The notes under the pieces: model-generated
Seen by the model: the letters and a program-made list of their open reading frames with translations, nothing else
Told to the model about the DNA's origin: nothing
Databases searched by the model: none
Shown: positions 5,490 through 61,439 of the stretch, piece by piece
Layout of the letters: the number at the start of each line of letters is the position of its first letter
Numbering within the stretch: position 1 is the stretch's first letter
From: an uncultured Rikenellaceae bacterium
GTDB taxonomy: Bacteria > Bacteroidota > Bacteroidia > Bacteroidales > Rikenellaceae
Length of the DNA: 64,000 nucleotides
NCBI GenBank assembly: GCA_964371475.1
Contig: CAYJMA010000001.1
Coordinates: 2,999-66,998 of the forward strand
Direction of reading: 5' to 3'
Position numbers and translations under genes: made by a program

Positions 5490-5513
5490 TTAATCGCAGA
5501 TTATCATATATAA

Positions 5514-5545: not shown

Positions 5546-5592
5546 TGAAATTATACCCTAAAATAGGTAAACTAAATCTGATAAAAGTTCGT

Positions 5593-5600: not shown

Positions 5601-5637
5601 TAGTTAATTTTTTTTATAGATAGGAGAGGATATATAT

Positions 5638-7989: not shown

Positions 7990-7996
7990 AGAAACA

Positions 7997-8146: not shown

Positions 8147-8198
8147 AAAATATGCGAAAACTACTTCCCTAAAATGTGAAAATTCCACGAAAAATTAG

Positions 8199-8206
8199 TA
8201 TATTTG
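8199..8206 (+). promoter_or_regulatory. Bacteroides-type -7 box upstream of ahpC
   Basis: TATATTTG at 8199-8206, 39 nt upstream of the ahpC ATG. Confidence 0.4.
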
Positions 8207-8244
8207 TGGGTAATATTATTTAACTAAAAAAAATTAAAATAACT

Positions 8245-8811
8245 ATGGAATCAATTATCAATTCAACAGTACCAGAATTTAAGGTTCAAGCCTTCCAAGG
8301 AGGTGAATTTAAGACAATTACAAACAAAGATCTTGAGGGAAAGTGGGCAATCTTTTTCTTCTACCCCGCAGACTTTACATTTGTATGCCCAACCGAACTG
8401 GTGGATATGGCAGAGAAGTATGAGCAGTTTAAGTCAATGGGCGTGGAGATCTACTCGGTTAGCACCGACACTCACTTTGTACACAAGGCGTGGTATGACA
8501 CCTCGGAGTCAATTCGTAAGATAAACTATCCTATGCTTGCAGACCCTACTGGACACCTATCGCGTGCCTTTGGCGTGATGATCGAAGAGGAAGGTATGGC
8601 ATATCGCGGAACATTTGTGGTTAACCCCGAGGGGCTAATTAAACTTGCCGAAATTCAGGACAACAGCATAGGACGTAACGCAGATGAACTTCTTCGTAAG
8701 GTGGAGGCAGCTCAATTCGTTGCATCGCATAGTGGTGAGGTGTGTCCAGCAAAGTGGAAAAAAGGTGCCGAAACACTTAAACCGAGCATTGACCTTGTAG
8801 GTAAAATCTAA
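8245..8811 (+). CDS. ahpC: Alkyl hydroperoxide reductase subunit C (2-Cys peroxiredoxin)
   Basis: 188 aa. Peroxidatic Cys motif FTFVCPTE and resolving Cys in GEVCPAKW. Followed by ahpF. Confidence 0.95.
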   Translation: MESIINSTVPEFKVQAFQGGEFKTITNKDLEGKWAIFFFYPADFTFVCPTELVDMAEKYEQFKSMGVEIYSVSTDTHFVHKAWYDTSESIRKINYPMLADPTGHLSRAFGVMIEEEGMAYRGTFVVNPEGLIKLAEIQDNSIGRNADELLRKVEAAQFVASHSGEVCPAKWKKGAETLKPSIDLVGKI

Positions 8812-46241: not shown

Positions 46242-46249
46242 GTATATTT
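46242..46249 (+). promoter_or_regulatory. Bacteroides-type -7 box for the flippase gene
   Basis: TATATTTG at 46242-46249, only ~10 nt before the ATG at 46260. This implies a very short leader. Confidence 0.35.
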
Positions 46250-46259
46250 GCAGGTAATT

Positions 46260-47693
46260 ATGAGTTCAAAATTACTGAAAAATAGTATTATATATGCTGT
46301 GGGTGATATTATCCCACGCGTTATAATTTTTCTCATATTCCCAGTCCTAACTACGCACCTCTCACCAGCTGACTACGGAATTGTAAACTACGTAAATATG
46401 TTTATAACCCTCTTTGCGATTGTTAGCATATTGGGGCTGAATACCTACTATTTGGTTCACTATTTTAAGGTTGGAGATGTCGTTGCACAGCGCAAATTGC
46501 TGGGCAATATCACTCAATTTGTTGTGGGCATAAATCTCATATTGACCATACTGCTACTACTACTGGGCTACATTGCACCAACTGCATTTAGCTCAAATAT
46601 CGACTTTTTCCCCTATATCGCACTCGGTGTGGGGACGAACTTCTTTAATGTCTTTTCCATCCTACCCTCAGCACTATATCGAGTGCAAGAGCGCCCGCTA
46701 CCACTAGCAACTATAAACATTATAAAGGGTATTGTAACAATGGGGCTTACGCTAACGCTTGTAGTGGGTTTTGGATTTTCCGCCAAGGGTGTCCTCTGGG
46801 CGAACTTCGTGGTGTCGCTTCTTTTTGCACTGATATTTATAGCCATTACGCTCCGAAATATGGAGTTTAACCTCAACTGGCCGCAGATTAAATCCGCACT
46901 GCGATTCTCAATGCCTCTGGTACCCGGAGCAATTGCATACTTTGCGCTGTCTATGTCCGACAGATACTTCATAGATAAATACCTAAGCCTCACAGAATTA
47001 GGTATCTATACTACCGCCTCTACGCTTGCTATGATACTGAGCATCGTGTCGTATGGAGCCTATCGAGCATTTGAGCCATACTTCTTTAAGATATATGGTA
47101 GCGAAACCTTTACGCGTCAGTATAAAAACATTCAAAATCTATATCTCTTTGTCATTCTCTTCGGTGGAGCAGGTTTGAGTATATATGCCAGAGAGTTTTT
47201 TGAATTGTTTGCATCGAGTTCATACTCAATGGTCTACCTTTACGTTCCGATGGTTCAGGTCAGCGTCATCTTTATGGCAATGTCACTGCTCTTTGCAACC
47301 ATTGTTACGGCACAAGGAAAAACCAAGATCAATGCCCTGGCAAACATAATTGGTGGAGGGCTTAGCATTGCGCTCAACATACTCCTTATCCCACGTTTTG
47401 GTATTGTAGCATCGTGTATTGCCTCGTCGGTGGCAACGGCAACGATTATGATTATACTCTTTCGTAGCGCACGCCTCGGTGTGTCGTATGTTGCGCCAAT
47501 TGCCGCGTTTTTGCTCACCGCAACCTCAGTTGCACTCTGTGTGTACACCATTGATTTTGATGGTACGCTCTATGATATACTATTCAAAAGCGCGGTGCTC
47601 ATCATAACGATGATTGTTAACCTGCTGATTCTAAAAATCGATGTGCGAAAATATATATTTAGACACACCGCCACAAACATTACAAGACAATGA
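46260..47693 (+). CDS. wzx: Polysaccharide/oligosaccharide flippase (Wzx-like, MOP superfamily)
   Basis: About 477 aa, starting from the ATG at 46260 (the track begins at a TTG at 46248). N-terminal LLKNSIIYAVGDII and ~12-14 TM helices. Confidence 0.8.
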   Translation: MSSKLLKNSIIYAVGDIIPRVIIFLIFPVLTTHLSPADYGIVNYVNMFITLFAIVSILGLNTYYLVHYFKVGDVVAQRKLLGNITQFVVGINLILTILLLLLGYIAPTAFSSNIDFFPYIALGVGTNFFNVFSILPSALYRVQERPLPLATINIIKGIVTMGLTLTLVVGFGFSAKGVLWANFVVSLLFALIFIAITLRNMEFNLNWPQIKSALRFSMPLVPGAIAYFALSMSDRYFIDKYLSLTELGIYTTASTLAMILSIVSYGAYRAFEPYFFKIYGSETFTRQYKNIQNLYLFVILFGGAGLSIYAREFFELFASSSYSMVYLYVPMVQVSVIFMAMSLLFATIVTAQGKTKINALANIIGGGLSIALNILLIPRFGIVASCIASSVATATIMIILFRSARLGVSYVAPIAAFLLTATSVALCVYTIDFDGTLYDILFKSAVLIITMIVNLLILKIDVRKYIFRHTATNITRQ

Positions 47694-48721
47694 AACACCT
47701 TTTTGTAGTCCACTCAAACTTAACATACCTTGCTGCGCTTGCCACTGTTTACAAAGAGAATTTATGCCCTGAGGATGTTGTAATACTCGGCGATAAGTTT
47801 AGTGCGAGCTATCCCATCGAGACGCAGTTGGTGAAATCATTATCTGGAAATCAACTTTTGCGCTCTCCACGCCGAGCTCTCTTTTCGATTGGATATGTGG
47901 ATAAAATAATCAAACGAACTACAAATAGTGAACCATATGTGCTCTACGTTGCGGCGCTATATAATGTGCAAAGAATATGCTTTTCAAACTCTAAGTGTCA
48001 GGGGCTAAATTTTATAGAAGAGGGTTTGTCAGTCTATCTGTCCACTGTATCACTGTCGAGAATATTGTCAAACAACGAACAAACAAAATCACTGCGTAAT
48101 AGATCGTGTCGAACCTTTTTCAAAGACCTTTTTAAGTTGATTAAAGGATATAGCTACAAGATGCAAGCGTTGCCGTTTCTGTACAATGGCTACTCTAATC
48201 TTGAGGGTGTGAAGTTCTATGGTTTTAACAAAGAGTCGTTTTGTGGAGTGGATGATGTTCAGCAACTGTCATTTGTAGATACTATCAATCATTTTGATAT
48301 GAGATCTCAATTGGAGCTTGCTGGCGGTAATTTATGGATAGGGTCAAATATTGTATCGCTGGGCTTAGAGCCGCTTGAGAGTTATCTGAGCGCCATCAAA
48401 GAGGGTGTTGTAGAGTGTTTTGCTCATTCGAGCGGCACCCGCGCCTTTGTAAAGTTCCACCCAGCTGAGTGTGAGGCATCACGGAATGGCACTCTTAAGC
48501 TATTTGCTGATGCAGGTATAGAACCAGTTGTGGTGGATGATAGTGTGATCATTGAGGTAGAGATATTTTCAAATACGGGGGTTACGGTATGGGGAGTAGA
48601 TTCCAGTATTATGTACTACGCATCGTCGGCTGGCGTACGTTGCAAGTCGATAGTTGATCGATTGGTGAACTATCCTAAGGCAACACTTCCATTCTTTTGG
48701 GAGCGTGTTGAGACGGTATAG
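47690..48721 (+). CDS. Hypothetical protein, possibly a GT52-like or capsule glycosyltransferase (weak)
   Basis: 343 aa with an ATGA overlap with wzx. The N-terminus MKHLFVVHSNLTYLAALA resembles the start of GT52/sialyltransferase-like proteins from memory. No firm motif. Confidence 0.35.
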   Translation: MKHLFVVHSNLTYLAALATVYKENLCPEDVVILGDKFSASYPIETQLVKSLSGNQLLRSPRRALFSIGYVDKIIKRTTNSEPYVLYVAALYNVQRICFSNSKCQGLNFIEEGLSVYLSTVSLSRILSNNEQTKSLRNRSCRTFFKDLFKLIKGYSYKMQALPFLYNGYSNLEGVKFYGFNKESFCGVDDVQQLSFVDTINHFDMRSQLELAGGNLWIGSNIVSLGLEPLESYLSAIKEGVVECFAHSSGTRAFVKFHPAECEASRNGTLKLFADAGIEPVVVDDSVIIEVEIFSNTGVTVWGVDSSIMYYASSAGVRCKSIVDRLVNYPKATLPFFWERVETV

Positions 48722-48750
48722 AGCCTGTGCACCACCTATATCTAATGGTT

Positions 48751-49821
48751 TTAGAGAAGTTTTTCCTTAGCGATTACCTTTGCACAGGCAATAAATCCTG
48801 TTAGGAGTACAAGTAGTATTATTATCAATATTTTATTTGGCGAGGAGCTTCCAATAGGTCTTGTTGCAGGTTCAATTACCACGTAGACAGGAGTTTCGTT
48901 CTGCATTTTAAGTTTTGCATCTTCAAGGTTTTGCGCCAAGGTACTGTACACAGAGTAGTCAATATCTTTTTCTTCTTCGAGTCGTTGTAGCGATGTTAGA
49001 GCAAGCTGCGAGGTGTAGTTCCTACTATGGTCAGCAACCTTTGCCCAATTATTTAGCGACTCGTGATACTTTTGCTTGGCTTCGTCATACATCTGTTGGG
49101 TGAAGCGTAGAGTTTCCTTTGCCTTTTTGGTGCGATAGTCTACAATGTATCTCTGGATGTTCTGCACCACAACCTCTGCAATATCGCACGACACCTGAGG
49201 ATCTTGCATCTCCACGAAAACTGAAATTACAGAGGTGTTTTCGTCAATTGCAAGATAGATTCTACTCTCAATGGCCTGAAATATGGAGTACTGTTTGAGC
49301 GTAAGTGCCTGAATGTTGATTGAGTCAGCAGCAGCATTTTTGTCTTCGTCTTCCTCAGCGGAGGTAACCCACGATATGAGTTTGAGGGGTGCTCCGAGTA
49401 TGTAGCTCCACCACGGTGCTCTTTGTTCGTCGAGCATATAGTTGTACAGTGTGGAGGTGTACTCTCCATTTAGGGTTGTCACCTCAACGTTGAATAGATC
49501 TGTTATGAAGGGCAAACTGCTTACTACCTCTGGGTATAGCTCAGCAGAGATTGCATCGCCCCCCCCTGAACTCTGAGAGTCAAAGTCAATTCCAGCCATT
49601 GCCGCAAATCCACCCAGTGATCCAAGTCCTGAAAGGGATGATTGTATTTCGGGTGCTAATGTAACAGTTGTGGTGTACTCTCGCGGTATGCTAAATCCAA
49701 TGATTAGCCCCGCAACGACTCCACAAACACCCCATTTCATTATATACTTGCGCCGCTTCCACAACGTGGTTATAATCTTTGCAATATCAATTTCTTTGTC
49801 AAAGTTACTCTCCGCTTTCAT
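48751..49821 (-). CDS. wzz: Wzz-type chain length determinant protein
   Basis: 356 aa. IDIAKIITTLWKRRKYI followed by TM1, a long coiled periplasmic region, and a C-terminal TM preceded by the Pro-rich PATRPIGSSSPNK. Confidence 0.8.
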   Translation of the reverse strand: MKAESNFDKEIDIAKIITTLWKRRKYIMKWGVCGVVAGLIIGFSIPREYTTTVTLAPEIQSSLSGLGSLGGFAAMAGIDFDSQSSGGGDAISAELYPEVVSSLPFITDLFNVEVTTLNGEYTSTLYNYMLDEQRAPWWSYILGAPLKLISWVTSAEEDEDKNAAADSINIQALTLKQYSIFQAIESRIYLAIDENTSVISVFVEMQDPQVSCDIAEVVVQNIQRYIVDYRTKKAKETLRFTQQMYDEAKQKYHESLNNWAKVADHSRNYTSQLALTSLQRLEEEKDIDYSVYSTLAQNLEDAKLKMQNETPVYVVIEPATRPIGSSSPNKILIIILLVLLTGFIACAKVIAKEKLL

Positions 49822-50084: not shown

Positions 50085-50111
50085 TAAAAAAGAGCCTATT
50101 GTTTAGGCTCT
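50085..50111 (-). terminator. Intrinsic terminator closing the glycine-zipper module
   Basis: On the minus strand, AGAGCCTA-aacaa-TAGGCTCT is followed by TTTTTT. The stop codon of the 76-aa ORF lies inside the 3' arm of the stem. Confidence 0.65.
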
Positions 50112-50326
50112 TTTCTAATTTTAACTAAAGTAATTATTCTAAGAATAACTATTGATATGGCAAGAACAATTGTAGATACAAATAAGACTTTCCCTAATGT
50201 CATTAATGGTGATATTGTGAAATTCTCTATTTCAGTTATCACTAAATTAGCAATGATTAGTGCAAAGATAATCACCAAAATGGTCAAATGGGTTCTACCT
50301 CCTATAAAGTTTTCAAAAGTTTTCAT
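50096..50326 (-). CDS. 76-aa two-TM membrane protein (candidate immunity/partner protein)
   Basis: MKTFENFIGGRTHLTILVIIFALIIANLVITEIENFTISPLMTLGKVLFVSTIVLAISIVILRIITLVKIRKEPKQ. Its ATG (50324-50326) shares one base with the TAA stop of the upstream gene (TAATG). The longer track ORF up to 50518 is an out-of-frame read of the Gly-rich region. Confidence 0.6.
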   Translation of the reverse strand: MKTFENFIGGRTHLTILVIIFALIIANLVITEIENFTISPLMTLGKVLFVSTIVLAISIVILRIITLVKIRKEPKQ

Positions 50327-51090
50327 TATTCCCAAAACCAATCCCAAATTTGTTTTACAGCATACTCTGCGGAATTTGCAACACCTCCTGTTAAACCACC
50401 AACAATAGCACCAGGGACAGCGCCAGCTCCTCCTGCAAGTGATCCAACTCCAGCTCCTACCACAGCTCCTGCAACTGCGCCTGATACATCTTGACCACCA
50501 AACTCTTTCCAGCTCCATTCTGCACGAGTTAACACTCTTGTATTTGCACCAGTAATAGCTTCAACCCATTTTGCCGTATTTTTCTCCCAGTATATCAGAG
50601 TGTTTTTAGCAACAGATGCGCCACATAATAATGCAGACAAATCACTGCCTGTGCAGTTTAACTTTATCTCCTCTTCGATTGCTTCGATATGTTCAATAGC
50701 ATCTTTTGAATTTGAGAATTCAGAACTATAAAAAACTTTCTGAATTTTAGCATAATAGATTTTTGCAGTTGAGTCTGACAGTTCCGCAACAGATTCGTTT
50801 AATTCGCTTGCGCTACGTGTTATTACACTTTCGTACCCAGTATTGATATTATTATTATTTAAGAATTTTTCTATCGCATTATCAATAAATTGTCTTGAGA
50901 TTTCTCTCACACCATTCTTTGTAGTAGGCTGGGATTTAATTTCTTCGAGAATAAAATCTAATCCTTCATTGTGTAGTTCTCCAACCATTTCATAGTCAAG
51001 TGTATGACTTTTCGTTGTTTCAACATTGGACTTGCAAGATGCAAAAGCAATGCTTGAAAGTGTTAGTAAAGTGAGTAATAATTTTTTCAT
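50326..51090 (-). CDS. Lipoprotein with a helical N-terminal domain and a C-terminal glycine-zipper segment
   Basis: 254 aa with lipobox IAFASC. The C-terminus is GGQDVSGAVAGAVVGAGVGSLAGGAGAVPGAIVGGLTGGVANSAEYAVKQIWDWFWE (repeated GxxxG/A). Confidence 0.7.
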   Translation of the reverse strand: MKKLLLTLLTLSSIAFASCKSNVETTKSHTLDYEMVGELHNEGLDFILEEIKSQPTTKNGVREISRQFIDNAIEKFLNNNNINTGYESVITRSASELNESVAELSDSTAKIYYAKIQKVFYSSEFSNSKDAIEHIEAIEEEIKLNCTGSDLSALLCGASVAKNTLIYWEKNTAKWVEAITGANTRVLTRAEWSWKEFGGQDVSGAVAGAVVGAGVGSLAGGAGAVPGAIVGGLTGGVANSAEYAVKQIWDWFWE

Positions 51091-51127: not shown

Positions 51128-51423
51128 AAAAGTGCACTTATTTCGGATGCAAAGGTATTATTATTATTATTATTTACAAAATTATATACAAAAAATTTTA
51201 TAAAAAATATGTAAAAGGAGTGTAGTAGCAGATTAGGCAGAGGTTGCCGCCAAGCAGAGCATCATCAGCCAAACCTATAAGAGACAATTGCAAAACAACT
51301 ATATGTTCGAGTAGCTCAAAGATTTTTAGCTCTTTTCTCGATTCAGGAATCGAGACTCGCTCATATCTGACACTATCTGAATAACAGTGAATTTACCCCA
51401 AAAAATATTGACTAACCACCGTG
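51128..51423. repeat. 296-bp direct repeat, copy 1 (appears identical to 55535-55830)
   Basis: Base-by-base reading shows the same 296 nt at both sites, with an offset of 4407 bp. The flanks diverge immediately on both sides. Confidence 0.9.
51150..51180 (-). promoter_or_regulatory. Canonical Bacteroides promoter (-33 TTTG, 19-nt spacer, -7 TACCTTTG) inside repeat copy 1
   Basis: The minus strand reads TTTG (51180-51177), then 19 nt, then TACCTTTG (51157-51150). The start codon of the glycine-zipper gene is at 51090. Confidence 0.6.
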
Positions 51424-51524: not shown

Positions 51525-52018
51525 TTACTTTGATGTAGGCGTGCCGATAGATCTTATACGTTTCTTATACGCTTCCCAAATCATAGGATAGAAAATAGGA
51601 CTGCCACTCATTAAAACACTTCCTTTTGAGTCCACTAGAAATATATGTTTATGGGATCTTCTGGCAAGTTATTGTCCCTTTCAAAGTTGCCACTGGGATC
51701 AAAAATTATTGGGTGCGTAAACTTTAATAGCGTTATGTTTTGCTTTATCTCCACACTTTAAGAGTCAGCGTTTAGGATGTAAATAAAGCTAACGGGCAGA
51801 GAGTCCTTCGAGGCATTTTTCATAAGCCACTTCCACCTGCTTAGTTCTTTTATTCTACACGAAGCACATCCCTGAGCATCAAAATAAGCAACAATACGAT
51901 AGTTATTATCTACAACAATAGAATCATCAAAATGAATATTTGTGGGGATACTATTGTTTGATAAACAACTATTCATAATGCTGAGAAGCAGACCTATGAA
52001 AAACAATCTTACCCTCAT
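51525..52018 (-). pseudogene. Decayed thioredoxin-fold (TlpA/ResA-like) lipoprotein gene
   Basis: The 86-aa ORF (lipobox IMNSC, CASC motif) ends at an in-frame TAA (51758-51760). The same frame continues as SVEIKQNITLLKFTHPIIFDPSGNFERDNNLPEDPINIYF and then hits a stop. After a 1-nt frame change it reads VDSKGSVLMSGSPIFYPMIWEAYKKRIRSIGTPTSK*. Confidence 0.65.
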
Positions 52019-52020
52019 AA

Positions 52021-53043
52021 TTAAATTCCATATTTGGAGTCTAAGTATTCATATGTTTTAATTATTACGGAGTCCTCGTAGTGAGTGAGATAATCATTAT
52101 CAACATAGATGTCGGGCACTACACCTATGCCTTCCAGCGGAATCATACCTGGAGTTAAAACCCTCTCTACCGAGAATGTATATGTCCAGCCATTGGGCAA
52201 AATCCCACTAATGGGTGCAGAGTACGATCCACTCGTTGTAGCACCAATAAATGTACATTCGTCAAATTGCTTTGCACATAATAAAAAACGTTCCGATGCG
52301 CTCTGTGTTAGCTTATTAGTTAGTACAACAGTTACCTTGTCGCTGAGGCTATTTTCGTGGAGATAATTATGATGTGCTTGTGGTGGACTAAAATCGTTAC
52401 TACCTGCCCCAGTTTTCTTTTGCGTGTAATGTACAGTATTCTGATTCATCGCAAAATAAGATGCCAAATAAAAGGCATTATAGGTCATTCCGCCAGGGTT
52501 GGCTCTAAGGTCAATTATAATTGCATCGCACATAGAGACTTTGCTAAGCAACTTGTCAATATCACTAAGAGTATAGTTTCCCTCATCGAAAGTTGAAATG
52601 TGTATGTACCCGATATTTCGCACAAAATCATATATCCAATATAGTGCCCCATTAGAATTCATATCGTGCAGGGAATAACCAAGTGTGTACCCAACTTCCA
52701 CTATATCAAAACTATTAAAATCACTTATACTACCAGCTGAATTGAAATATTTCCTTGGGTGAAAACCATTGGGATTTGACATTGATACGTGTGCATCATT
52801 TAGGTGGCGCATCATCGATGACATAACGTCCCATAGGCTGTCCTGGCTTATACCATCAGTCACACGGGGGCGATAAACTTGGTAGAGGCTATCCCAGTTT
52901 ACACCTCTATCCTCAAAGACCGCATAGTGGGTATTCATTTCTTCCCAATAGGTCTCAAATACATCAAGGTTGGTCGTAGTCGGAGCTTTATAGCAACTCG
53001 ATGCAACAAAAAGCGTTGCAAGGCTGTAAAAAATCTTTTTCAT
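52021..53043 (-). CDS. S41-family peptidase lipoprotein
   Basis: 340 aa with lipobox FVASSC. S41 signature IIIDLRANPGGM and a downstream Ser/Lys region (TQSASERF). Confidence 0.75.
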   Translation of the reverse strand: MKKIFYSLATLFVASSCYKAPTTTNLDVFETYWEEMNTHYAVFEDRGVNWDSLYQVYRPRVTDGISQDSLWDVMSSMMRHLNDAHVSMSNPNGFHPRKYFNSAGSISDFNSFDIVEVGYTLGYSLHDMNSNGALYWIYDFVRNIGYIHISTFDEGNYTLSDIDKLLSKVSMCDAIIIDLRANPGGMTYNAFYLASYFAMNQNTVHYTQKKTGAGSNDFSPPQAHHNYLHENSLSDKVTVVLTNKLTQSASERFLLCAKQFDECTFIGATTSGSYSAPISGILPNGWTYTFSVERVLTPGMIPLEGIGVVPDIYVDNDYLTHYEDSVIIKTYEYLDSKYGI

Positions 53044-53825
53044 AATCTAAATCTCACTTTTGCCATTAGTGTGTTGTCGATGATAGATACAGCAGAGGGT
53101 TTTAAGTATTGTGTGGTACGAAGCTCATAACTCACGCCAACAGCCACGACATTTGATAACGCATAACAGTATTCAACTCCAAGATTCAAATCCCAGAATT
53201 GTCCTATTGTGGCGAAATCACCGCTAAAAAATTCACCAAGTATATACTCGCAATAATCATGTGGTTGATCGTCATAGTTGGGGAGACGACTATATGGTGG
53301 GCGAGAAACAAAGCCGAGCAGATGAAAATCAAGCCTCGTGGAAATATTGTTTCGATTGAAATTCCAGTTACCTTGGATAATTGGACGAAGACTGTGCGAG
53401 GCGATGTAGCTGTATAGCGAGAGTGTTCGTAGCGAAAAATCAATCCTCATCTGATACCCACCACCCGCAAGCATAGTGAAGTTGTTCCAATTTCCCACCT
53501 TTACGAGGTAATTTGCAAATAGGTTGAAGTTATAGTTATCTGTGGCGGTATATCTACTGGGCGCACTAATTTGACCAATTGCACCGCCGAAGCCAAATTC
53601 AATAACAGAACCACACTGCCAACTATATCCGGCCGAAATGGTGGTGGCAAAATCTGACTTTATATAGTTCAGAGGACTGAGTGTCTTATCGTGAAAGTAC
53701 CCAGCTCTATACCCTGTTCCCATATCAATGTTCCATCCTTTTGTCTGACTGAAACCTACAGTAGAGAGTAGCGTAAAGACGACTGTTGCTAAAAATCTCA
53801 TAAAAAATTTGTGCTGTATCTTCAT
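53040..53825 (-). CDS. Predicted outer-membrane beta-barrel protein of unknown function
   Basis: 261 aa with a signal peptide (..LLSTVGFSQ). Alternating hydrophobic/aromatic beta-strand pattern throughout. ATGA overlap with the S41 gene. Confidence 0.55.
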   Translation of the reverse strand: MKIQHKFFMRFLATVVFTLLSTVGFSQTKGWNIDMGTGYRAGYFHDKTLSPLNYIKSDFATTISAGYSWQCGSVIEFGFGGAIGQISAPSRYTATDNYNFNLFANYLVKVGNWNNFTMLAGGGYQMRIDFSLRTLSLYSYIASHSLRPIIQGNWNFNRNNISTRLDFHLLGFVSRPPYSRLPNYDDQPHDYCEYILGEFFSGDFATIGQFWDLNLGVEYCYALSNVVAVGVSYELRTTQYLKPSAVSIIDNTLMAKVRFRL

Positions 53826-53891
53826 TGCAAAGATACAAATTAATTTGGAGCTACTATTAATATAAATAAACCATTTCAGTCTTTGTTCATA

Positions 53892-54755
53892 CTAAATTAC
53901 TGTTATATCCCTAACTAATACAAATGTAAGGAGATTTGCTGTACTACCTGATAATTTATAAGTGGTCTCATCAACAGTGGTCTCGGCAATATTTCCTCTA
54001 AGTAATGTAAGATTAATTATTGCAGAATCCGGAATACCATCAAGCAACTTAGGATCTAAAACTACTTTCCCATTATCATTGGCGATAAACTCGGTTCTTC
54101 TTACACTGGATGACTCACAAGAGCCATCATACATAGTGCGTCCATCCCATTCTATAACAAGTAGTAGACCATTATTATTATCCATATCAGCATTCCAACT
54201 TACAGATAAATTTTTGTAATAACATAGTGGGTATAAATCTTCCTCAGTTGTAATTTTAGGAGAAGTAATAGTAATTTCTTCAGGTACATACATATTAATT
54301 GTTGTATCAGAACTACCTCCGCCCTTGGTTAAACTATTAGCGGTAAGCTTAAATTGAACGTTATTTCCATATAAACTATTGAAATCAATGTCATTAGCCT
54401 TTGCAACAGATCTTGTTGAACTATAACTATTAATAGTCACACCATTTACACTAATTATGCAATTCTGATTAGGCAGTGTGCCTCTAGTCAAAAGAGCAAG
54501 ATCAGGAATGGTAATCGCAGAATGTACGTTTTCTCCAATAGGAGTGTCTTTTACTGATTGGATTGACACTGTATAGTTGGCAGGAGAAAAATGCTTTTCA
54601 TACACACCTGCTGAATCTGAAATAAAGCTCTCCTCTACTATGGGGTCAATTTGAGTTTGCGATGTAAAATTATTATCTGCTGTGTCAACCTTAACTGACT
54701 GACAAGAGGTCGTGAAAAATACAGCGCATAGTATTGTGTAAATGTATATCTTCAT
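53892..54755 (-). CDS. Lipoprotein of unknown function (beta-rich)
   Basis: 287 aa with lipobox FFTTSC. No motif recognised. Confidence 0.55.
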   Translation of the reverse strand: MKIYIYTILCAVFFTTSCQSVKVDTADNNFTSQTQIDPIVEESFISDSAGVYEKHFSPANYTVSIQSVKDTPIGENVHSAITIPDLALLTRGTLPNQNCIISVNGVTINSYSSTRSVAKANDIDFNSLYGNNVQFKLTANSLTKGGGSSDTTINMYVPEEITITSPKITTEEDLYPLCYYKNLSVSWNADMDNNNGLLLVIEWDGRTMYDGSCESSSVRRTEFIANDNGKVVLDPKLLDGIPDSAIINLTLLRGNIAETTVDETTYKLSGSTANLLTFVLVRDITVI

Positions 54756-54780
54756 AACTATTTTATTGTTTTATTAATAT

Positions 54781-55482
54781 TTAGAATGCTATCATACTTA
54801 GAGTGCTTTTGTGTCTTTGCCTGTATTCATCTTCCACATAAATATCCCTGACAGGAACATCAGGATTAAGACGTGTAGTTCCATCCCAAAGAACATCTGT
54901 AATAAGCCTACCTGGTTTTGGGACAATATCATAACTGTATTGTGAGAAAACAAATTGATTACGCAGAGTAAGGTTAAACTCCCATTCTACATGTCGTTCC
55001 ATAGATTTTAGATGCTCGTGATCCTTCCAGGATTTAGACTTTATAAGAATTCTAATTGTGCTTGTGCCAGGAGTATAACCAACATTTTTGATTTCACAAA
55101 ACTGACCATTCTCGTGCGTGTTCATTTGCGTTGGAGACAAGATTGTCTTGACAGCCTCGCCTTCACAAGTAGCGGCACTAACTCGAATCTCCATTTTGGA
55201 TTGGTTTGCATAATTAAATAGTTCAGAAATAGTACCGCCGGTATAGGTGTTACTATATGTGTTTATTATGCCACTTGCACTCAAGGCTGACTTGCCAGCA
55301 GCAGATAAGGTCCAATCCTTATCATAAAATGTGACAGGAACATCCCTTAGTATTAAATTGTTGTGACTATTACTAAAAAAACTGCTACATTTTTCTCTTG
55401 TGCCTGTACATTTATTACTCATCAGTAATAAGCACGTAAACACACCAAGCATTAACAGAAATCCGGGTTTCATTCTTTTCAT
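54781..55482 (-). CDS. Secreted protein or lipoprotein of unknown function
   Basis: 233 aa with a hydrophobic signal containing Cys residues (GVFTCLLLMSNKC). First gene after repeat copy 2. Confidence 0.55.
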   Translation of the reverse strand: MKRMKPGFLLMLGVFTCLLLMSNKCTGTREKCSSFFSNSHNNLILRDVPVTFYDKDWTLSAAGKSALSASGIINTYSNTYTGGTISELFNYANQSKMEIRVSAATCEGEAVKTILSPTQMNTHENGQFCEIKNVGYTPGTSTIRILIKSKSWKDHEHLKSMERHVEWEFNLTLRNQFVFSQYSYDIVPKPGRLITDVLWDGTTRLNPDVPVRDIYVEDEYRQRHKSTLSMIAF

Positions 55483-55534: not shown

Positions 55535-55830
55535 AAAAGTGCACTTATTTCGGATGCAAAGGTATTATTATTATTATTATTTACAAAATTATATACAAAA
55601 AATTTTATAAAAAATATGTAAAAGGAGTGTAGTAGCAGATTAGGCAGAGGTTGCCGCCAAGCAGAGCATCATCAGCCAAACCTATAAGAGACAATTGCAA
55701 AACAACTATATGTTCGAGTAGCTCAAAGATTTTTAGCTCTTTTCTCGATTCAGGAATCGAGACTCGCTCATATCTGACACTATCTGAATAACAGTGAATT
55801 TACCCCAAAAAATATTGACTAACCACCGTG
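55535..55830. repeat. 296-bp direct repeat, copy 2 (appears identical to 51128-51423)
   Basis: See copy 1. Confidence 0.9.
55557..55587 (-). promoter_or_regulatory. Canonical Bacteroides promoter (-33 TTTG / -7 TACCTTTG) inside repeat copy 2
   Basis: Same sequence as 51150-51180. The start codon of the 233-aa gene is at 55482. Confidence 0.6.
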
Positions 55831-55945: not shown

Positions 55946-56626
55946 CTACATCTCTCCCTCGATGCTATCCACAATGTGACCATCAAGAAGGTTTACCACA
56001 CGGTGAGCATAACGGCTATCACGCTGAGAGTGAGTCACCATCACGATTGTCGAACCGCTTTGGTTTAACTCCGAGAGTAGCGCCATTACTTCTCTTCCGT
56101 TTTTAGTGTCGAGATTACCGGTGGGTTCGTCGGCAAGTACAATCTTCGGCTCGCTGACCACTGCCCGTGCAATAGCAACGCGTTGTTGCTGTCCTCCAGA
56201 TAGTTGCTGTGGGTAGTGCCCAGCACGGTGAGAAATTGCCATACGCTTGAGTATTGCATCGACACGAACTTTACGCTCCTTGGGAGGTACGCCAAGATAG
56301 ATGAGCGGAAGCTCCACGTTCTCGAATACCGAAAGTTCGTCAATAAGGTTGAAGCTCTGAAATATAAAGCCGATGTTACCCTTGCGGGTTGTTGAACGCT
56401 TACCCTCGCTGAGATTTCCGACCTCCTTGCCGTCGAGTATATAACTTCCTGAGGTCGCTCCGTCGAGGAGTCCGAGTATGTTCATAAAGGTCGATTTACC
56501 ACAACCGGATGGACCCATAATGGCTACAAACTCACCCTTCTCAATCTCAAGCGATACGCCGCCAAGTGCTACTGTTTCGATTTCTTCGGTACGAAAGATT
56601 TTCTCGATGTTTTTTACTTTAATCAT
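55946..56626 (-). CDS. ABC transporter ATP-binding protein (MacB/LolD type)
   Basis: 226 aa. Walker A GPSGCGKST, signature LSGGQQQRVAIARA and Walker B VLADEPTGNLD. Confidence 0.92.
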   Translation of the reverse strand: MIKVKNIEKIFRTEEIETVALGGVSLEIEKGEFVAIMGPSGCGKSTFMNILGLLDGATSGSYILDGKEVGNLSEGKRSTTRKGNIGFIFQSFNLIDELSVFENVELPLIYLGVPPKERKVRVDAILKRMAISHRAGHYPQQLSGGQQQRVAIARAVVSEPKIVLADEPTGNLDTKNGREVMALLSELNQSGSTIVMVTHSQRDSRYAHRVVNLLDGHIVDSIEGEM

Positions 56627-56667: not shown

Positions 56668-58998
56668 TTATTCAGATTTTAAGGATTGTATCGGATTGCG
56701 GTTCGCAACGCTGTAACATTGGAAGGTTACCACGGCTATGACCAGTGTGGTAATCACCACAAATACTATCACAAAGACCCACCAGTATAGTGGCACTCGA
56801 TAGCTAAAACTCTCTAACCACCAGTTCGTACCCCACAGAGCAAGCGGTACTGCTACGACAAAACTCACAAGTAGAGTGGTTAGCACCGAGCGGTTGAATC
56901 TCACTAGCAGCCCCCATACTGTCGAACCATAGACTTTGCGTAGCGCGATCTCTTTGTAGCGATGCTGCATATCGAATAGCACCATTCCGAAGATTCCCAT
57001 TAGCGAGATTATAAACGTTACGATAGAAAATAGCGTTACAAGCTCTTCGTTGCTTTGCTCCTTGCCGTACATCTCCTCGATGTGTTGGTTCAGCGGTACT
57101 ATTCTGCGACTTTGGGCCTGAGAGTTTGCATCTAAGTCCTGTAATGTGTTGCGCAGGAGCTTCTCCACTTCACTATATTTTGCCGTAGGGCTTAGTCGCA
57201 TATAGAGTTGCTCGGCGTAGGGTTTGATATTTTCCGGAGTGGTGATAAATGCCATTGGAGCTACCACATCTCGTAGCGAGGAAGCGTGTACATCACCCAC
57301 AACGCCGACGACCTCCATATCAACTCCATCGATAATGTCTCCAACCTTGAGATCATATGCCTCTTGCATACTCTTGTTTATTATCACCTTGCCACCGCCC
57401 ATATCATCTCTAAATGCCTCACCCTCCAAGACCTCAATGCCCAGAACATCGAGCGTGTGGGCATCACAATACAGAGCGGTATAGCGCTTCTCTGCACCCT
57501 CTTTGTCCTTGGTGTATGACCACGCCGGGTATTCGTTCACAATGTTCCCCATCATTAGACTTGCATTTTCTATCATTGGGCTTTTTAGCAGCTCTTTTCT
57601 GAATGTTTCAAGGTTAAAGTTGGAGTTTTGTAGCGACATAGTTACCACCCTATCCCTGTCGAAGCCATAGTCATACTCTCTTAGGTAGTTGTTCTGCAGG
57701 ATAATAAACAGAGCAATCACCGCAAATACAAACGACACGACAAATTGCACAGCAGAGAGTCCAGCACGAAGCACTCTACCACTTTTTGAGCGTCCAAACG
57801 AGCCTTTGAGTACCAGCGTAGGTTTGAACTTGGTGATATAGAATGCAGGGAAGAGTCCTATAACAAGCCCAAGTAAGATGATTAATCCCACGCCAAGTAG
57901 CAGAGGGTAGAGCACCTCGGTTACGGAGATCGGCACGCGGAAGAGCTCTGCTATGTAGCTCTGCGAAGCGAGCTGGATCCACACCACGCTAATGGCATAG
58001 CTCAACAACATAAATAATAGTGCCTCGAATATAATATTTGCCCGAAGTGCCGCTACCGGTGCTCCAAAGACCTTGTTGATGTTCACCGCACGGATGCGAA
58101 TAGGTACAAGAGACATAAAGAAGTTCAGGTAGTTGATAATTGCAAGGGCAATGATAATAATGGCAATGATTATCGAGATAAGCGTTACTGTCATATTGCC
58201 CCCCATTGGGAAAATGGGAGAAAAATACTCCTCGCCTACCGCCTCAAAGCGCACTATGTCGTGAGTAAGCTCTGGCATCTGCAATTTTTCCTTGATGTCA
58301 TTACTCGTAAGCTCGATCATCTCTGCAAGCGCAGCGTTATGATCTACCCCTTCCTTTAGTTTGTAGTAGTATGAGAAGGACCAGTGCCCGAAGTCGTCAA
58401 TGAGCAGATCTCCTATATTTACAAGTGCCATATCGTTTATTCGGTTATTGGAGGGTAGTGGCTCATAGACTGCAACGACTCTTAGGGTATCACCACCGCA
58501 GAGGATTAGTTCACCGACGGGGGACTCCTCCACCTCGAATAGCTTTTGGCTAAGTGTGAGGGGTAGAATCACCGTGTTTTCGCTATTGAAGTCCTCGAAT
58601 CTGCCCTCTAAGCACTTCAGTCCGAAGGTCGAGGGTACTCCATACGAGGCTCTGTACGTTCCGTGTATAAACTCTTTATCAGAGTTCAAGCGATTAAAGA
58701 CAGGGTCGTTGAATCCGATGAAGGTGCCGTAGCTCTCCACGGCAGGGGAGGAGATGCCCAACTTTTCGCCCATAGGTCGTGAAACCGATGGCCAGTACTT
58801 ATCTGCATCAACGGAGCCAAGCACACGATAGATACGCTCGTGATCGGGAATCGAACGGTTGTATGAGAGCTCCCACCATACCTGCGAGGCGAGGATGATA
58901 AAGACCGCAAAGGCAATCGATAGTCCAAGGAGGTTGAGCACCGATGCGACTCTGAACCGCGTGAGCGTTACCCAAAAGTTTTTCAGTATGTTTTTCAT
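56668..58998 (-). CDS. FtsX/MacB-type ABC transporter permease
   Basis: The start was moved to MKNILKNFWVTLTRFRVASVLNLLGLS (58998), which parallels the N-terminus of the upstream paralog. The track's 68-aa extension overlaps that gene. Duplicated FtsX 4-TM modules with large periplasmic domains. Confidence 0.85.
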   Translation of the reverse strand: MKNILKNFWVTLTRFRVASVLNLLGLSIAFAVFIILASQVWWELSYNRSIPDHERIYRVLGSVDADKYWPSVSRPMGEKLGISSPAVESYGTFIGFNDPVFNRLNSDKEFIHGTYRASYGVPSTFGLKCLEGRFEDFNSENTVILPLTLSQKLFEVEESPVGELILCGGDTLRVVAVYEPLPSNNRINDMALVNIGDLLIDDFGHWSFSYYYKLKEGVDHNAALAEMIELTSNDIKEKLQMPELTHDIVRFEAVGEEYFSPIFPMGGNMTVTLISIIIAIIIIALAIINYLNFFMSLVPIRIRAVNINKVFGAPVAALRANIIFEALLFMLLSYAISVVWIQLASQSYIAELFRVPISVTEVLYPLLLGVGLIILLGLVIGLFPAFYITKFKPTLVLKGSFGRSKSGRVLRAGLSAVQFVVSFVFAVIALFIILQNNYLREYDYGFDRDRVVTMSLQNSNFNLETFRKELLKSPMIENASLMMGNIVNEYPAWSYTKDKEGAEKRYTALYCDAHTLDVLGIEVLEGEAFRDDMGGGKVIINKSMQEAYDLKVGDIIDGVDMEVVGVVGDVHASSLRDVVAPMAFITTPENIKPYAEQLYMRLSPTAKYSEVEKLLRNTLQDLDANSQAQSRRIVPLNQHIEEMYGKEQSNEELVTLFSIVTFIISLMGIFGMVLFDMQHRYKEIALRKVYGSTVWGLLVRFNRSVLTTLLVSFVVAVPLALWGTNWWLESFSYRVPLYWWVFVIVFVVITTLVIAVVTFQCYSVANRNPIQSLKSE

Positions 58999-59030
58999 TG
59001 ATTTGATAGTATTAATTCTATTGATACAGT

Positions 59031-61439
59031 TTATGAATTGCGCAGAACATTGATAGGGTTTTGAGTTGTAGCTTTGTAGGTTTGCATAATTACAGTTCCT
59101 GCGACAATTGTTGCCACAATTGCCACTGCAACGACAAATACCCAGAGGTAGAGTTCGGTGCGATATGCATAGCTCTCCAGCCACCACAAAATTCCATACC
59201 ACGACAGTGGAATTGCGATCACTGCACTAAGTGCAACGACCAATAAATATCCTTTGAGCATCTTGACAAGGAGTTGCGATATGGATGATCCATAGACCTT
59301 GCGCAGTGCTATTTCCTTGCGCCGATGGAAGGTCTCAAAGATCACCATACCAAAGACACCGACCAGAGAGATCATCACCGCTATGGCAGCAAATAGAGTT
59401 ATAAGCAAGCTGGTGTTTTGCTCCTTGTGGTAGATCGTCTGGAGTTGTTCGTCAAAGAACCTCGCCTCGATTGTTTCAGGATTACGCTCGGGTGATAATT
59501 CCTTAATTACACGCTCGATGTACTCCATAGTCTGGGCAATGTTCGCCCCGGGGGCAATACGCACGTAAACCGTACTGGGAGCTCTCCACCCATCGCTACC
59601 AAACTCATAGAGGCACATTGGCTCAACCTCGCTCTGAAGTGAACGGAAGTTAAAATCCTTGACAATACCCACCACATCGGCAGGCTCGTCTGCGTGCCCC
59701 ATGAATGTGTCGCCCACGTTTATGTTGTACTTTTTGGCGGCAGTTTCGTTGAAAATCACCGTGCCATTGATTTTGGTAGCATCCGTCTCTATAAAAGTTC
59801 GCCCCTCTACAATCTCCATACCCATAAGCTCGGGATAGTTCCACGACGAGGGGAATGAGTATACTGTTGCAGATTCACCATTTATATTTCGCCCCCAGCG
59901 CATACCAAAGTCCATTAAGTTGCCATCTCCAAACGCCACGTCCTCGATGGCGCTATTCTCCTTCAGGCGGTTTTTGAGCGTGGTGGGGTCATTTGCGAGC
60001 ACACCGACATCTGCTGTGGCAATTCTATCTCGCTTAAAGCCATAGTCGTAATTCATCATATAGTTGTTTTGGATCACCACGAATAGCGAGGCTATAATCA
60101 GTGATATCGAGATCACAAACTGAAAGGAGGTAAGCACCGCACGATACCTTTGCCCTCGCTTACTACGCCCAAAAGAGCCTTTGAGAGTAAGCGTTGGCGG
60201 AAACTTGGTGATGTAAAAGGCTGGGAAAAGTCCAGAGAATATGCCTACTGCCACGGCAAATCCCAACGAGCAAGCTATTATTGCGATATTGTCTCCAAAG
60301 GCAAGCGAAGAGCTAACCAGCTCTGCTATAAAACTCCCCGAGAGTAGGTAGAAGATAAGCAGTGATAGGGAGAAGGAGAGTAGCATAATGCCCACAGCTT
60401 CGCCTATGATGTTGGCGCGGAGTGCCGCCACTGGTGCACCAAAGACCTTGTTGATGTTTACAGCACGGATACGTACCGGTACGAGCACCATAAAGAAGTT
60501 TATGTAGTTTATAACCGCAATGATTACAATAAGTAGCGCAATGAGTAGTAGCGTGAGCGAGAGGGTGCTATTACCCAAGTAGAGCCCGCTAAGCTCGCCG
60601 CCGAAGTAGGTATCCAGAAGCGGAATATAGCTCAAATATCCCTCCGTTACGCTCTCCATCTCCTTGTCTAAATCTTCCTTGCTGACACCATAACGGTTGA
60701 CTATCAGCTCCACGAGGTTGGGCGTAACTGCCTCTGCCACAGCCTCGGGAGATACCCCCTTTCGTAGCTTTACAAGGTAGAGGTAGCTCCACTCGCTGGT
60801 GCTCTCCAAGCCCATATCCCAAATGTCGACAAGCACGGGATTTTCCGCCTCCTTGCCGCCCAAGAGTGTGTTGTCTGGCATATCCTCATATATTGCCACC
60901 ACCTCGTAGCTATTTTTTCCCTCCTTTATGATCTTTCCCATTGCGCTTAGGTACTCATCGCCAAGCATAGCACGCGCCATACTAAGGGGGATAGCCGCGG
61001 CATCTGCCTTTTCGATAGCTGCAAAATTACCGCTTACGATTTCGAGGTTCATCACCTCTGCAAAGGCAGGCGATACATAAGCAGTGGAGCGTGAGAGGAT
61101 TTTGTCGTTCCCATCAACGGTGAAATCCCTCGGCCAATACACCCAAATAGGACTATATGCCTCCACCTCGGGCGTGCTGGTGCAAATCACCTCGGCAAAG
61201 GGACGAGCAACAAAGGTAGCATAGCCGTCGTCGCCAAAACCAGATAGTTTGTTGTGAATACCCACGATGTGTACCTGCCCTTCGGGGTCGTGCGCACGGT
61301 TAAAGGTGTGCTCCCACCAAAGCTGCGAGCCAATAATCATAAGAACCGCAAAGGCAACGGATAACCCCAAGATGTTAAGCAACGATGCGATCCTAAAGCG
61401 AGTGAGCGTTACCCAAAAGTTTTTTAGAATGTTTTTCAT
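59031..61439 (-). CDS. FtsX/MacB-type ABC transporter permease (paralog)
   Basis: 802 aa. MKNILKNFWVTLTRFRIASLLNILGLS. The conserved block NINKVFGAPVAALRANII is shared with the downstream paralog. Confidence 0.88.
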   Translation of the reverse strand: MKNILKNFWVTLTRFRIASLLNILGLSVAFAVLMIIGSQLWWEHTFNRAHDPEGQVHIVGIHNKLSGFGDDGYATFVARPFAEVICTSTPEVEAYSPIWVYWPRDFTVDGNDKILSRSTAYVSPAFAEVMNLEIVSGNFAAIEKADAAAIPLSMARAMLGDEYLSAMGKIIKEGKNSYEVVAIYEDMPDNTLLGGKEAENPVLVDIWDMGLESTSEWSYLYLVKLRKGVSPEAVAEAVTPNLVELIVNRYGVSKEDLDKEMESVTEGYLSYIPLLDTYFGGELSGLYLGNSTLSLTLLLIALLIVIIAVINYINFFMVLVPVRIRAVNINKVFGAPVAALRANIIGEAVGIMLLSFSLSLLIFYLLSGSFIAELVSSSLAFGDNIAIIACSLGFAVAVGIFSGLFPAFYITKFPPTLTLKGSFGRSKRGQRYRAVLTSFQFVISISLIIASLFVVIQNNYMMNYDYGFKRDRIATADVGVLANDPTTLKNRLKENSAIEDVAFGDGNLMDFGMRWGRNINGESATVYSFPSSWNYPELMGMEIVEGRTFIETDATKINGTVIFNETAAKKYNINVGDTFMGHADEPADVVGIVKDFNFRSLQSEVEPMCLYEFGSDGWRAPSTVYVRIAPGANIAQTMEYIERVIKELSPERNPETIEARFFDEQLQTIYHKEQNTSLLITLFAAIAVMISLVGVFGMVIFETFHRRKEIALRKVYGSSISQLLVKMLKGYLLVVALSAVIAIPLSWYGILWWLESYAYRTELYLWVFVVAVAIVATIVAGTVIMQTYKATTQNPINVLRNS

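Follow-up and report, generated by a model that had tools for sequence, protein, structure and literature searches.

The window studied here, 64,000 nt of contig CAYJMA010000001.1 from an uncultured Rikenellaceae bacterium, carries on its minus strand a pair of overlapping genes, one for a 254-amino acid (aa) lipoprotein that ends in a glycine zipper and one for a 76-aa protein with two transmembrane (TM) segments. In our view there is an even chance that the pair encodes a membrane toxin, exported as a lipoprotein through the Sec pathway and acting through its glycine zipper, together with an inner-membrane partner that would confer immunity to it. The assignment is made by analogy, and it is the best explanation we have because the anatomy and the context of the pair most resemble those of glycine-zipper toxins with membrane immunity proteins. 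An initial annotation of this DNA had proposed a toxin/immunity pair or, alternatively, a SlyB-like envelope module. The first idea is strengthened by the linkage of the small gene to the lipoprotein gene in all 15 loci that could be read and by the lack of clear homology to SlyB; the likeness to type VI secretion system (T6SS) effectors on which it drew does not stand.

The lipoprotein gene is accompanied by a gene for a small membrane protein

The sizes and positions of the two genes are those given in the initial annotation (Table 1), and so is their overlap: base 50326 belongs both to the TAA stop codon of the lipoprotein gene (50328-50326) and to the ATG of the small open reading frame (ORF; 50326-50324). 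The two-TM ORF is translationally coupled to the lipoprotein gene through this TAATG junction.

Fifteen loci, which are all the family members with a long enough downstream contig, could be inspected for such a partner (the window, L001, L002, L006, L007, L008, L010, L012, L013, L095, L097, L100, L101, L103 and L104). Every one of them has an ATG-initiated ORF of 53-76 aa that starts between -19 and +43 nt from the lipoprotein stop codon, and 14 of these 15 ORFs encode two clear hydrophobic segments and a net positive charge at both ends; the exception, in L008, has one strong and one weak hydrophobic segment. When the same criteria were applied to the 820 ORFs of at least 200 aa in 80 Bacteroidales loci, no match was obtained (0/820), and among 42 ORFs of the window the lipoprotein gene was the sole match. 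The initial annotation had made its toxin/immunity idea depend on conservation of the small ORF beside homologs, and against this background the small ORF is indeed conserved. The partnership is obligatory.

In the window, the partner has the two hydrophobic segments that had been predicted for it, followed by a basic C-terminal tail. The partner in L001, the locus of the closest lipoprotein homolog, occupies the same position and is 51% identical in amino acid sequence. The ratio of nonsynonymous to synonymous substitution rates (dN/dS) between the window and L001 is 0.46 for the partner and 0.18 for the lipoprotein, which argues that both genes are real and under constraint. The L001 small ORF lies 4 nt beyond the lipoprotein gene, without overlap. 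The remaining partners cannot be aligned to one another by eye, whereas the lipoproteins align over their full length, and a word-indexed search of 5.8 billion proteins with the window partner returned only the partner itself. Because both ends are basic, the positive-inside rule would make the partner a hairpin in the inner membrane with both termini in the cytoplasm.

A longer form of the small gene, a 140-aa ORF at 50096-50518, was rejected since homology with L001 starts only at MKTF/MKSF; its upstream part is an alternative frame of the glycine-rich region. Two plus-strand ORFs (50157-50408 and 50288-50494) were discarded as antisense artefacts of the lipoprotein and small-ORF region.

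A large lipoprotein family with a predicted all-helical fold

To judge from its N-terminus, which matches the signal and lipobox part of the PG1828 lipoprotein model (E 7e-7), the product of the first gene is a lipoprotein exported by Sec and signal peptidase II. The lipid-bearing Cys19 is kept in 79 of 85 aligned homologs. The closest homolog, P0002 (L001 163-915; 55-57% identity), has a Tyr in place of the lipobox Cys; this one-base change may reflect either a sequencing error or a secreted form that carries no lipid.

Across the family, conservation of the protein is highest in the C-terminal zipper. Both the repeated GxxxG/A stretch (SGAVAGAVVGAGVGSLAGGAGAVPGAIVGGLTGGVANS) and the aromatic tail WDWFWE are present as first described, and residues 196-240 hold eight GxxxG and 19 small-xxx-small motifs with 53% Gly+Ala. 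The N-domain has family motifs of its own around H40-N41 and Y167-W168...W175. Near-invariant positions in the 85-sequence alignment are the lipobox Cys, H40-N41, Y167-W168, W175, D201, G204, G208 and S240. Across 85 homologs the glycines of the zipper, the lipobox Cys and a number of N-domain residues hardly vary, and the small ORF is conserved; the features of the pair exceed what chance would give.

An AlphaFold model built with the same alignment as input has a mean predicted local distance difference test score (pLDDT) of 85 and a predicted template modelling score (pTM) of 0.80. It contains no strand of three or more residues, only two isolated single-residue bridge marks, and is otherwise all-alpha, including the N-terminal domain that had been described as helical. 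Its last two helices, residues 194-218 and 224-253, are predicted to form a hairpin (pLDDT 81-92) whose arms have mean hydropathies of 1.57 and 1.04. The helical domain and the conserved, moderately hydrophobic zipper hairpin are predicted to make up one compact fold. Given the high pTM of the whole chain and the pLDDT of the hairpin, the model suggests packing of the hairpin against the helical bundle, which would be the layout of soluble alpha-pore-formers.

The fold check proposed in the initial annotation, an AlphaFold model searched with Foldseek, was run on the lipoprotein and gave no known fold in PDB or BFVD: nothing significant was found in PDB with two models (best E 0.13, template modelling score (TM-score) about 0.14-0.15) or in BFVD with the better model (best E 0.06). 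Matches to the ClyA-type proteins AhlB, SmhB and MakA recurred in PDB and were rejected as evidence (AhlB and SmhB at E 0.13-0.5, probability at most 0.15, TM-score about 0.14).

The initial annotation implied an isolated protein, and a word-indexed protein search gave the same impression, with nine lipoprotein relatives of which one alone exceeded 50% identity. That near-orphan status was overturned by an exhaustive profile search, which retrieved 4,555 representatives of 50%-identity clusters at E<=1e-3, among them 1,992 at E<=1e-10 and 217 at E<=1e-30; the lipoprotein is thus a member of a very large family. Repeating the word-indexed search with the 85-sequence profile gained little, as it was swamped by glycine-rich words. 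Among the 150 matches listed, lengths run from 228 to 414 aa, mostly 250-350 aa, and nearly all span almost the whole profile. Few members are named; those that are appear as 'hypothetical protein' entries from metagenome-assembled genomes (MAGs) of Hanamia (Chitinophagaceae) and Ignavibacteriales. All ten 90%-identity clusters that were checked hold one or two sequences, all metagenomic, and a scan of GTDB genomes with the window lipoprotein found no close relative. The family is hypervariable and each variant is rare.

That the architecture could not be placed in a described family was borne out by Pfam, NCBIfam, PHROGs, PADLOC, PDB sequences and Foldseek against PDB and BFVD, all of which failed to place it. 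The N-domain is covered by no model from Pfam, NCBIfam, PHROG or PADLOC. On residues 201-240, Pfam gave sub-threshold matches to Gly-zipper_Omp, Gly-zipper_YMGG and DUF6861. Of all Pfam models the last has the largest number of matches in the family (11 of the 85 members, best E 6e-8), and it is described as a glycine-zipper membrane domain that occurs fused to polymorphic toxin domains (bioRxiv 10.1101/2022.08.23.504947). PHROG endolysin and tape-measure matches were set aside as low-complexity hits confined to the glycine-rich stretch. Neither window protein matches any anti-phage defence model in PADLOC; one homolog has a weak, partial match to LeoBC (E 1e-4). No full-length family member was found in the 2.9 million viral contigs of IMG/VR, and tblastn searches of 50,697 phage genomes and of a plasmid collection gave no match.

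Two further observations concern the modules of the family. Matches to the zipper alone (30-40 residues, 50-58% identity) occur in one viral contig (L094 5001-5093) and three metagenome contigs (L098, L099 and L102), so the zipper module is evidently also used in proteins outside the full-length family. Moreover, five of the 85 members carry an extra Cys-rich N-terminal module, for example P0008 (L010 5001-6053), that matches CBM_14 (best E 4e-9). This module, which resembles chitin-binding peritrophin-A domains, may be a targeting or binding addition to the same scaffold.

Export-signal-like N-termini in the family

The optimal surface export signal of Bacteroidota lipoproteins is C-x-K-(D/E)2-x, and Capnocytophaga surface lipoproteins have K at +3 in 72%, D at +4 in 48% and D at +5 in 44% of cases (PMC5080379). 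In Bacteroides, the signal for surface export also drives packing into outer-membrane vesicles (PMC6222051). We tallied the residues after the Cys in the 79 homologs that have it and compared them with a rough control, 101 lipoprotein-like N-termini taken from Bacteroidales loci. The family has K at +3 in 49% (control 8%) and D/E at +4 in 43% and at +5 in 46% (control 12% and 10%), and two or more acidic residues between +2 and +7 are found in 67% of the family compared to 16% of the control. The N-terminal pattern of the family thus resembles the Bacteroidota lipoprotein export signal. The strict C-x-K-(D/E)2 motif is present in 11/79 members, and the window lipoprotein reads C-KSNVET, with one acidic residue. 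Surface display is likely for much of the family; for the window copy it is uncertain, given the low count of the strict motif, the single acidic residue and the Tyr-for-Cys exchange in the closest homolog.

Gene neighbourhoods across the family

Nothing besides the partner ORF is conserved around the cassette across loci. Its neighbours include a two-component system and a Wzy_C/TPR membrane protein (L002 and L095), a LexA/CI-like repressor with a small helix-turn-helix (HTH) gene (L006), a ParE toxin pair (L007), an XRE regulator with a DDE transposase (L010 and L011), an XRE regulator with a PIN toxin gene (L103) and a HipA module (L104). In L002 and L095 the Wzy_C (O-antigen-ligase-like)/TPR gene lies directly 3' of the cassette (4974-6638 and 6057-7613, respectively); the link of the cassette to surface-polysaccharide genes may be recurrent or due to chance.

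L013 holds two cassettes within 1536-8245, with ORFs of 247 aa plus 60 aa and of 256 aa plus 53 aa. The second lipoprotein-like protein of this locus is distantly related (hhalign probability 96.8%) and has a 60-aa two-TM ORF of its own, so that the locus looks like a multi-cassette arrangement. The cassettes sit inside repeated sets of paralogous secreted proteins of no assigned family, comprising proteins of 142/143 aa, an 84-aa protein resembling the N-terminus of a 385-aa protein, and proteins of 206/178 aa that end in YY(I/L)LNCDLQ..W.

Proposed toxin and immunity functions, and the alternatives

If the pair is a toxin and its immunity protein, it could work as follows. The hairpin, once freed from the helical domain, would enter a lipid bilayer, where inserted hairpins would oligomerise through GxxxG packing and depolarise or permeabilise the membrane. 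Membrane damage of this kind has been shown for the glycine-zipper toxins CdzC/D, Tse4, TelE, EsxX and LXG-T2. The two-TM partner would intercept the hairpin in the inner membrane of the producer. This is the likely site of protection because the inner membrane of the producing cell is exposed while the prolipoprotein is anchored at its periplasmic face. The partner would likewise block attack by sibling cells. In most members the export-signal-like N-terminus would place the toxin on the cell surface and on outer-membrane vesicles, which is doubtful for the window copy.

Several lines of evidence favour this reading. The foremost is the linkage to a two-TM partner in 15/15 loci, compared to none in the background. 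The conserved zipper falls nearest to Gly-zipper_Omp, Gly-zipper_YMGG and DUF6861, the last being a toxin-fused domain. There are precedents for a helical N-domain and a zipper with a membrane immunity gene downstream (LXG-T2/Imm2, EsxX/ExiCD and CdzC/D/CdzI). The family is hypervariable, with singleton-like 90%-identity clusters, and its neighbourhoods are variable, with ParE, PIN, HipA, XRE or LexA-like and transposase genes and with the double cassette of L013. The N-termini resemble export and vesicle signals in 67% of the lipidated members compared to 16% of the control. Finally, the fast divergence suggested by the partner sequences is typical of immunity genes, and we count it in favour, as we do the suggested docking of the hairpin in the manner of soluble alpha-pore-formers.

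A number of points weigh against it. Toxicity and immunity are both assigned by analogy, and no homology to an experimentally proven toxin was found by the PDB profile search or by Foldseek against PDB and BFVD. Glycine zippers also occur in the harmless outer-membrane lipoproteins SlyB, OsmB and Pcp, and the second hairpin arm is weakly hydrophobic (mean 1.04). The part that is conserved would be the supposed toxin and the partners are unalignable, which is not the pattern expected from tight toxin-immunity co-evolution; orphan immunity-gene arrays were not seen in the loci examined. As regards delivery, we know of no route that leads from a surface or vesicle lipoprotein to the inner membrane of a Gram-negative target. 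The N-terminus of the window copy looks like a poor export signal, the closest homolog has a Tyr at the position of the lipid Cys, and the pair sits in the core chromosome beside polysaccharide genes, with no obvious mobile island.

An unlikely but serious alternative is a non-toxic envelope module, in which the zipper hairpin would sit in the cell's own outer membrane and serve stress protection or organisation in the manner of SlyB, OsmB or Pcp, with the small protein as a biogenesis, holding or regulatory factor. The sole sequence similarities found for the lipoprotein are to outer-membrane lipoprotein zippers (Gly-zipper_Omp, Gly-zipper_YMGG, YiaD and SlyB 7ojf), and the SlyB zipper is a transmembrane helical hairpin (as quoted in PMC12955049). 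All these matches cover about 40 residues only and stay below curated cut-offs: Gly-zipper_Omp (PF13488), the family of SlyB, Pcp and the 17-kDa antigen, scores 21.1 bits against a cut-off of 25 (E 3e-4), Gly-zipper_YMGG 17.2 against 28.9 and Gly-zipper_OmpA 11.7 against 27. Among the 85 homologs, 5-10 match the Gly-zipper models at E<=0.01, and the PDB sequence-profile search aligned SlyB 7ojf to the zipper alone (E 0.045). With zipper-only matches below threshold, and with a model that lacks the SlyB-type beta-sandwich and has its zipper C-terminal to a 170-aa helical domain, the SlyB/Pcp-type membership offered as the other option in the initial annotation is not supported. A conserved zipper next to a partner that is not conserved would suit generic membrane insertion, and the window copy lies beside Wzz and flippase genes in the core chromosome, with Wzy_C directly 3' of the cassette in two other loci. 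Export-signal-like N-termini, however, point outward and not to the periplasmic leaflet, and a housekeeping role is unlikely for a family of singleton variants with a patchy spread among toxin-antitoxin genes and transposases.

We give little credence to a surface or trans-envelope device that is no weapon, that is, a sensor, an adhesin or a receptor-masking lipoprotein that the two-TM inner-membrane partner would hold in place or through which it would signal. A version of this explanation is protection like that by BcdI, a Bacteroidales surface lipoprotein that blocks CDCL pores (PMC11169675). The invariant H40-N41 and Y167-W168/W175 could form a binding site, five of the 85 members have the CBM_14-like chitin-binding module, and XRE regulators lie near several loci. 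On the other hand, the partner has no output module, since it lacks a cytoplasmic domain beyond its short basic tail, a cognate toxin or regulator is not consistently adjacent, and an exported surface lipoprotein and an inner-membrane hairpin could not touch.

A phage-derived lysis or exclusion cassette, made of a class-II-holin-like two-TM protein and a lipoprotein resembling a unimolecular spanin (u-spanin) or acting in superinfection exclusion, is very improbable: the size, two TM segments and charged C-tail of the partner are holin-like, the lipobox and C-terminal membrane segment of the lipoprotein are u-spanin-like, the L006 pair lies beside a LexA/CI-like repressor and a small HTH gene, and PHROG endolysin and tape-measure models match the zipper, but those matches are restricted to the glycine-rich stretch, the viral-contig and phage-genome searches returned no full-length member and no match, respectively, and endolysin and phage structural genes are absent from the annotated window ORFs and from most loci, with no endolysin beside the pair.

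Features and surroundings of the pair in the window

Table 1. Coordinates of the gene pair, its encoded domains and its flanking elements in the window
Feature	Position	Strand	Basis
254-aa glycine-zipper lipoprotein gene	50326-51090, stop included	minus	ORF list; family profile 232 bits
76-aa two-TM protein gene	50096-50326	minus	ORF and sequence; positional analogs in 15 loci
Signal peptide with lipobox AFAS-C19, residues 1-19	51034-51090	minus	PG1828 lipoprotein model
Predicted all-helical N-domain, residues ~30-190	50521-51003	minus	AlphaFold, pLDDT 92-97 over most of the domain
Predicted C-terminal glycine-zipper helical hairpin (194-240) and amphipathic aromatic tail (241-254, ...QIWDWFWE)	50329-50511	minus	AlphaFold, alignment
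Copy 1 of 296-nt perfect direct repeat; upstream region of the pair	51128-51423		Repeat search, 100% identity
Bacteroides-type promoter-like motif TTTG-N19-TACCTTTG	51150-51180	minus	Read from sequence
Intrinsic terminator hairpin including the small-ORF stop codon	50088-50114	minus	Terminator scan and RNA fold

The pair had been credited with a promoter and a terminator of its own, and candidates for both are present. The promoter-like motif at the 3' end of repeat copy 1 consists of a -33 element TTTG (51180-51177), a 19-nt spacer and a -7 element TACCTTTG (51157-51150), about 60 nt 5' of the ATG, and it fits the Bacteroides -33/-7 consensus (TTTG/TAnnTTTG). A sigma-70 scan gave no enrichment in the region of the motif, and an Rfam search of the repeat and leader gave no match. 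At the other end of the pair, a strong hairpin with a 14-bp stem is followed by a U-run (dG -18.5 kcal/mol, z -4.24), and none of 200 shuffled sequences folds equally well.

The second copy of the repeat (55535-55830) lies 4407 nt from the first, upstream of another minus-strand operon, and the repeat core occurs exactly twice in the window, where no occurrence is expected by chance. The repeat contains a hairpin (GAGTCTCGATTCCTGAATCGAGA), and both copies end in the same promoter-like motif. Duplication, gene conversion and insertion of one operon together with a copy of the regulatory region are candidates for its origin. The operon under copy 2 (51758-55482, minus strand) has five genes, encoding an S41 peptidase lipoprotein, an 86-aa lipoprotein with a CxxC motif (DAQGCASC) and three proteins of no Pfam family: one that is secreted (233 aa), a further lipoprotein (287 aa) and one whose C-terminus is beta-barrel-like (261 aa).

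The wider context was read from the Pfam annotation of 39 other ORFs, which are most of the large ORFs in the 64 kb. The surroundings are those of a core chromosome (LigA, DapA, DnaJ, FeoB, Ppk, glycolysis genes and LysRS), and no T6SS or phage genes were found among the annotated ORFs. The housekeeping genes are followed by a MacB-type efflux operon and then by the hypothetical-lipoprotein operon with the S41 peptidase; on the other side of the pair (46248-49821) lie genes for Wzz, a polysialyltransferase-like protein (PF07388) and a flippase. The MacB-type operon, which is upstream of repeat copy 2, comprises an ATPase gene (55946-56626), two permease ORFs on the minus strand (56668-59202, 844 aa; 59031-61439, 802 aa) and an HlyD-like gene (61459-62703). 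As listed, the two permease ORFs share about 170 nt, so that the downstream one (56668-59202) probably begins at a later codon. In a GTDB genome scan with the neighbouring ATP-binding cassette (ABC) ATPase, the best match was 77% identical and came from a Mucinivorans MAG, which puts the window in the Bacteroidales with no close representative there; no syntenic locus lacking the pair was obtained.

Significance

We suggest more tentatively, and leaning slightly towards doubt, that the family as a whole represents new and widespread alpha-helical toxins of the Bacteroidota and the wider Fibrobacterota-Chlorobiota-Bacteroidota (FCB) group, carried as lipoproteins on cell surfaces and outer-membrane vesicles and equipped with a helical pro-domain of novel fold, which would keep the zipper hairpin soluble, and with tiny two-helix immunity proteins in the inner membrane. 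If the toxin reading is true, the Bacteroidota hold a large unannotated arsenal of alpha-helical membrane toxins, with thousands of 50%-identity clusters. Their route would be the usual one of lipoproteins, to the surface and to vesicles, and not the T6SS, the type IX secretion system or release as diffusible MACPF/CDC proteins. They would be a lipoprotein-borne counterpart of the colicin-type and LXG-type pore formers that needs no dedicated secretion machine, and they would add a mechanism of antagonism to the ecology of gut and environmental Bacteroidota. The pair would also be a minimal two-gene model of how zipper hairpins are kept harmless during export, and it would add a novel fold and a previously undefined family of tiny immunity proteins, often missed by gene callers. 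Should the pair instead have a structural role in the envelope, the Bacteroidota would have a counterpart of the SlyB-type membrane organisers, with the surprise of an obligatory partner in the inner membrane. On either reading, a family of this size that has no Pfam or NCBIfam model merits definition.

Comparison with known systems

SlyB, Pcp and OsmB are, like the window protein, lipoproteins with a lipobox Cys whose glycine zipper makes a helical hairpin for embedding in the membrane, and they give its best, though sub-threshold, matches. They are proteins of 70-155 aa that face the periplasm, have the zipper near the anchor and lack a coupled two-TM partner, and SlyB has a beta-sandwich. 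The protein described here, in contrast, has a 170-aa novel helical domain, a zipper at residues 194-240 of 254, an obligatory partner and, in its family, export-signal-like N-termini. No need for a coupled two-TM partner is known for SlyB-type genes.

Pore-forming colicins keep a hydrophobic helical hairpin within a soluble helical bundle and are countered by an immunity protein in the inner membrane. The predicted model has the same design, and the partner would correspond to the immunity protein. However, Foldseek found no fold match to known structures, and the lipoprotein has no receptor-binding or translocation domains; colicins, in turn, have no zipper hairpin and are not lipoproteins.

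The LXG toxin systems TelE/TipE, EsxX/ExiCD and LXG-T2/Imm2 share with the pair a helical N-domain of about 200 aa, a C-terminal zipper of about 50 aa and a membrane-protein gene directly 3'. For TelE, EsxX and LXG-T2, membrane depolarisation is a proven activity (PMC10434224, PMC12744356, PMC12955049). These toxins are Gram-positive, are secreted by the type VII secretion system without a signal peptide and have the LXG domain, whereas the window protein carries a lipoprotein signal peptide, has another kind of helical domain and comes from a Gram-negative host of the Bacteroidota. Pfam found neither an LXG domain nor any other on residues 1-190, and no sequence or fold homology to LXG toxins was detected.

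The contact-dependent bacteriocin system CdzC/CdzD/CdzI of Caulobacter combines a surface-retained glycine-zipper killer with a small multi-TM immunity protein from the same operon. CdzI, which is encoded in the CdzC/CdzD operon, has no sequence homologs (PMC5380434). The Cdz killers are 85-aa peptides with an RTX-like leader, an adjacent type I exporter, amyloid-like aggregates and a 3-TM immunity protein; here we find a 254-aa lipoprotein exported, as predicted, by Sec and signal peptidase II, with no dedicated transporter in the cassette, together with a two-TM partner. No type I secretion pair of an ABC transporter and a membrane fusion protein was found in the cassette or in related loci.

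The T6SS effectors Tse4 and Ssp6, with which the initial annotation compared the lipoprotein, insert into membranes through a GxxxG-rich region and are encoded next to the gene for their cognate immunity protein (cited in PMC12955049). They are delivered by the T6SS and lack a signal peptide. Since the lipoprotein has a signal peptide with a lipobox and the annotated ORFs of the window include no T6SS genes, the comparison is a misfit. The likeness to class II bacteriocins, also raised there, is partial. It extends to the small membrane gene directly 3', seen in all 15 loci, and fails in size, leader and exporter: no Pfam match to Bacteriocin_IIc was found, and the protein has 254 aa and a Sec/signal peptidase II signal rather than being a peptide below 10 kDa with a double-glycine leader. 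An ABC system does lie nearby, but in a separate operon, and it is of the MacB/FtsX type, not the C39-peptidase type.

From the same phylum, the Bacteroidales BSAP proteins of the MACPF type and the CDCL/BcdI system use a surface-lipoprotein or vesicle route, or a surface-lipoprotein immunity protein, in antagonism (PMC11169675, PMC12853789). Their pores are MACPF/CDC beta-barrels, and immunity is provided by receptor replacement or by a surface lipoprotein, not by a two-TM protein. The family itself, its helical fold, its delivery by lipoprotein and export signals and its uniform two-TM partner are undescribed in the libraries and literature searched. A glycine-zipper membrane protein that is paired with a small membrane partner is an already known kind of system.

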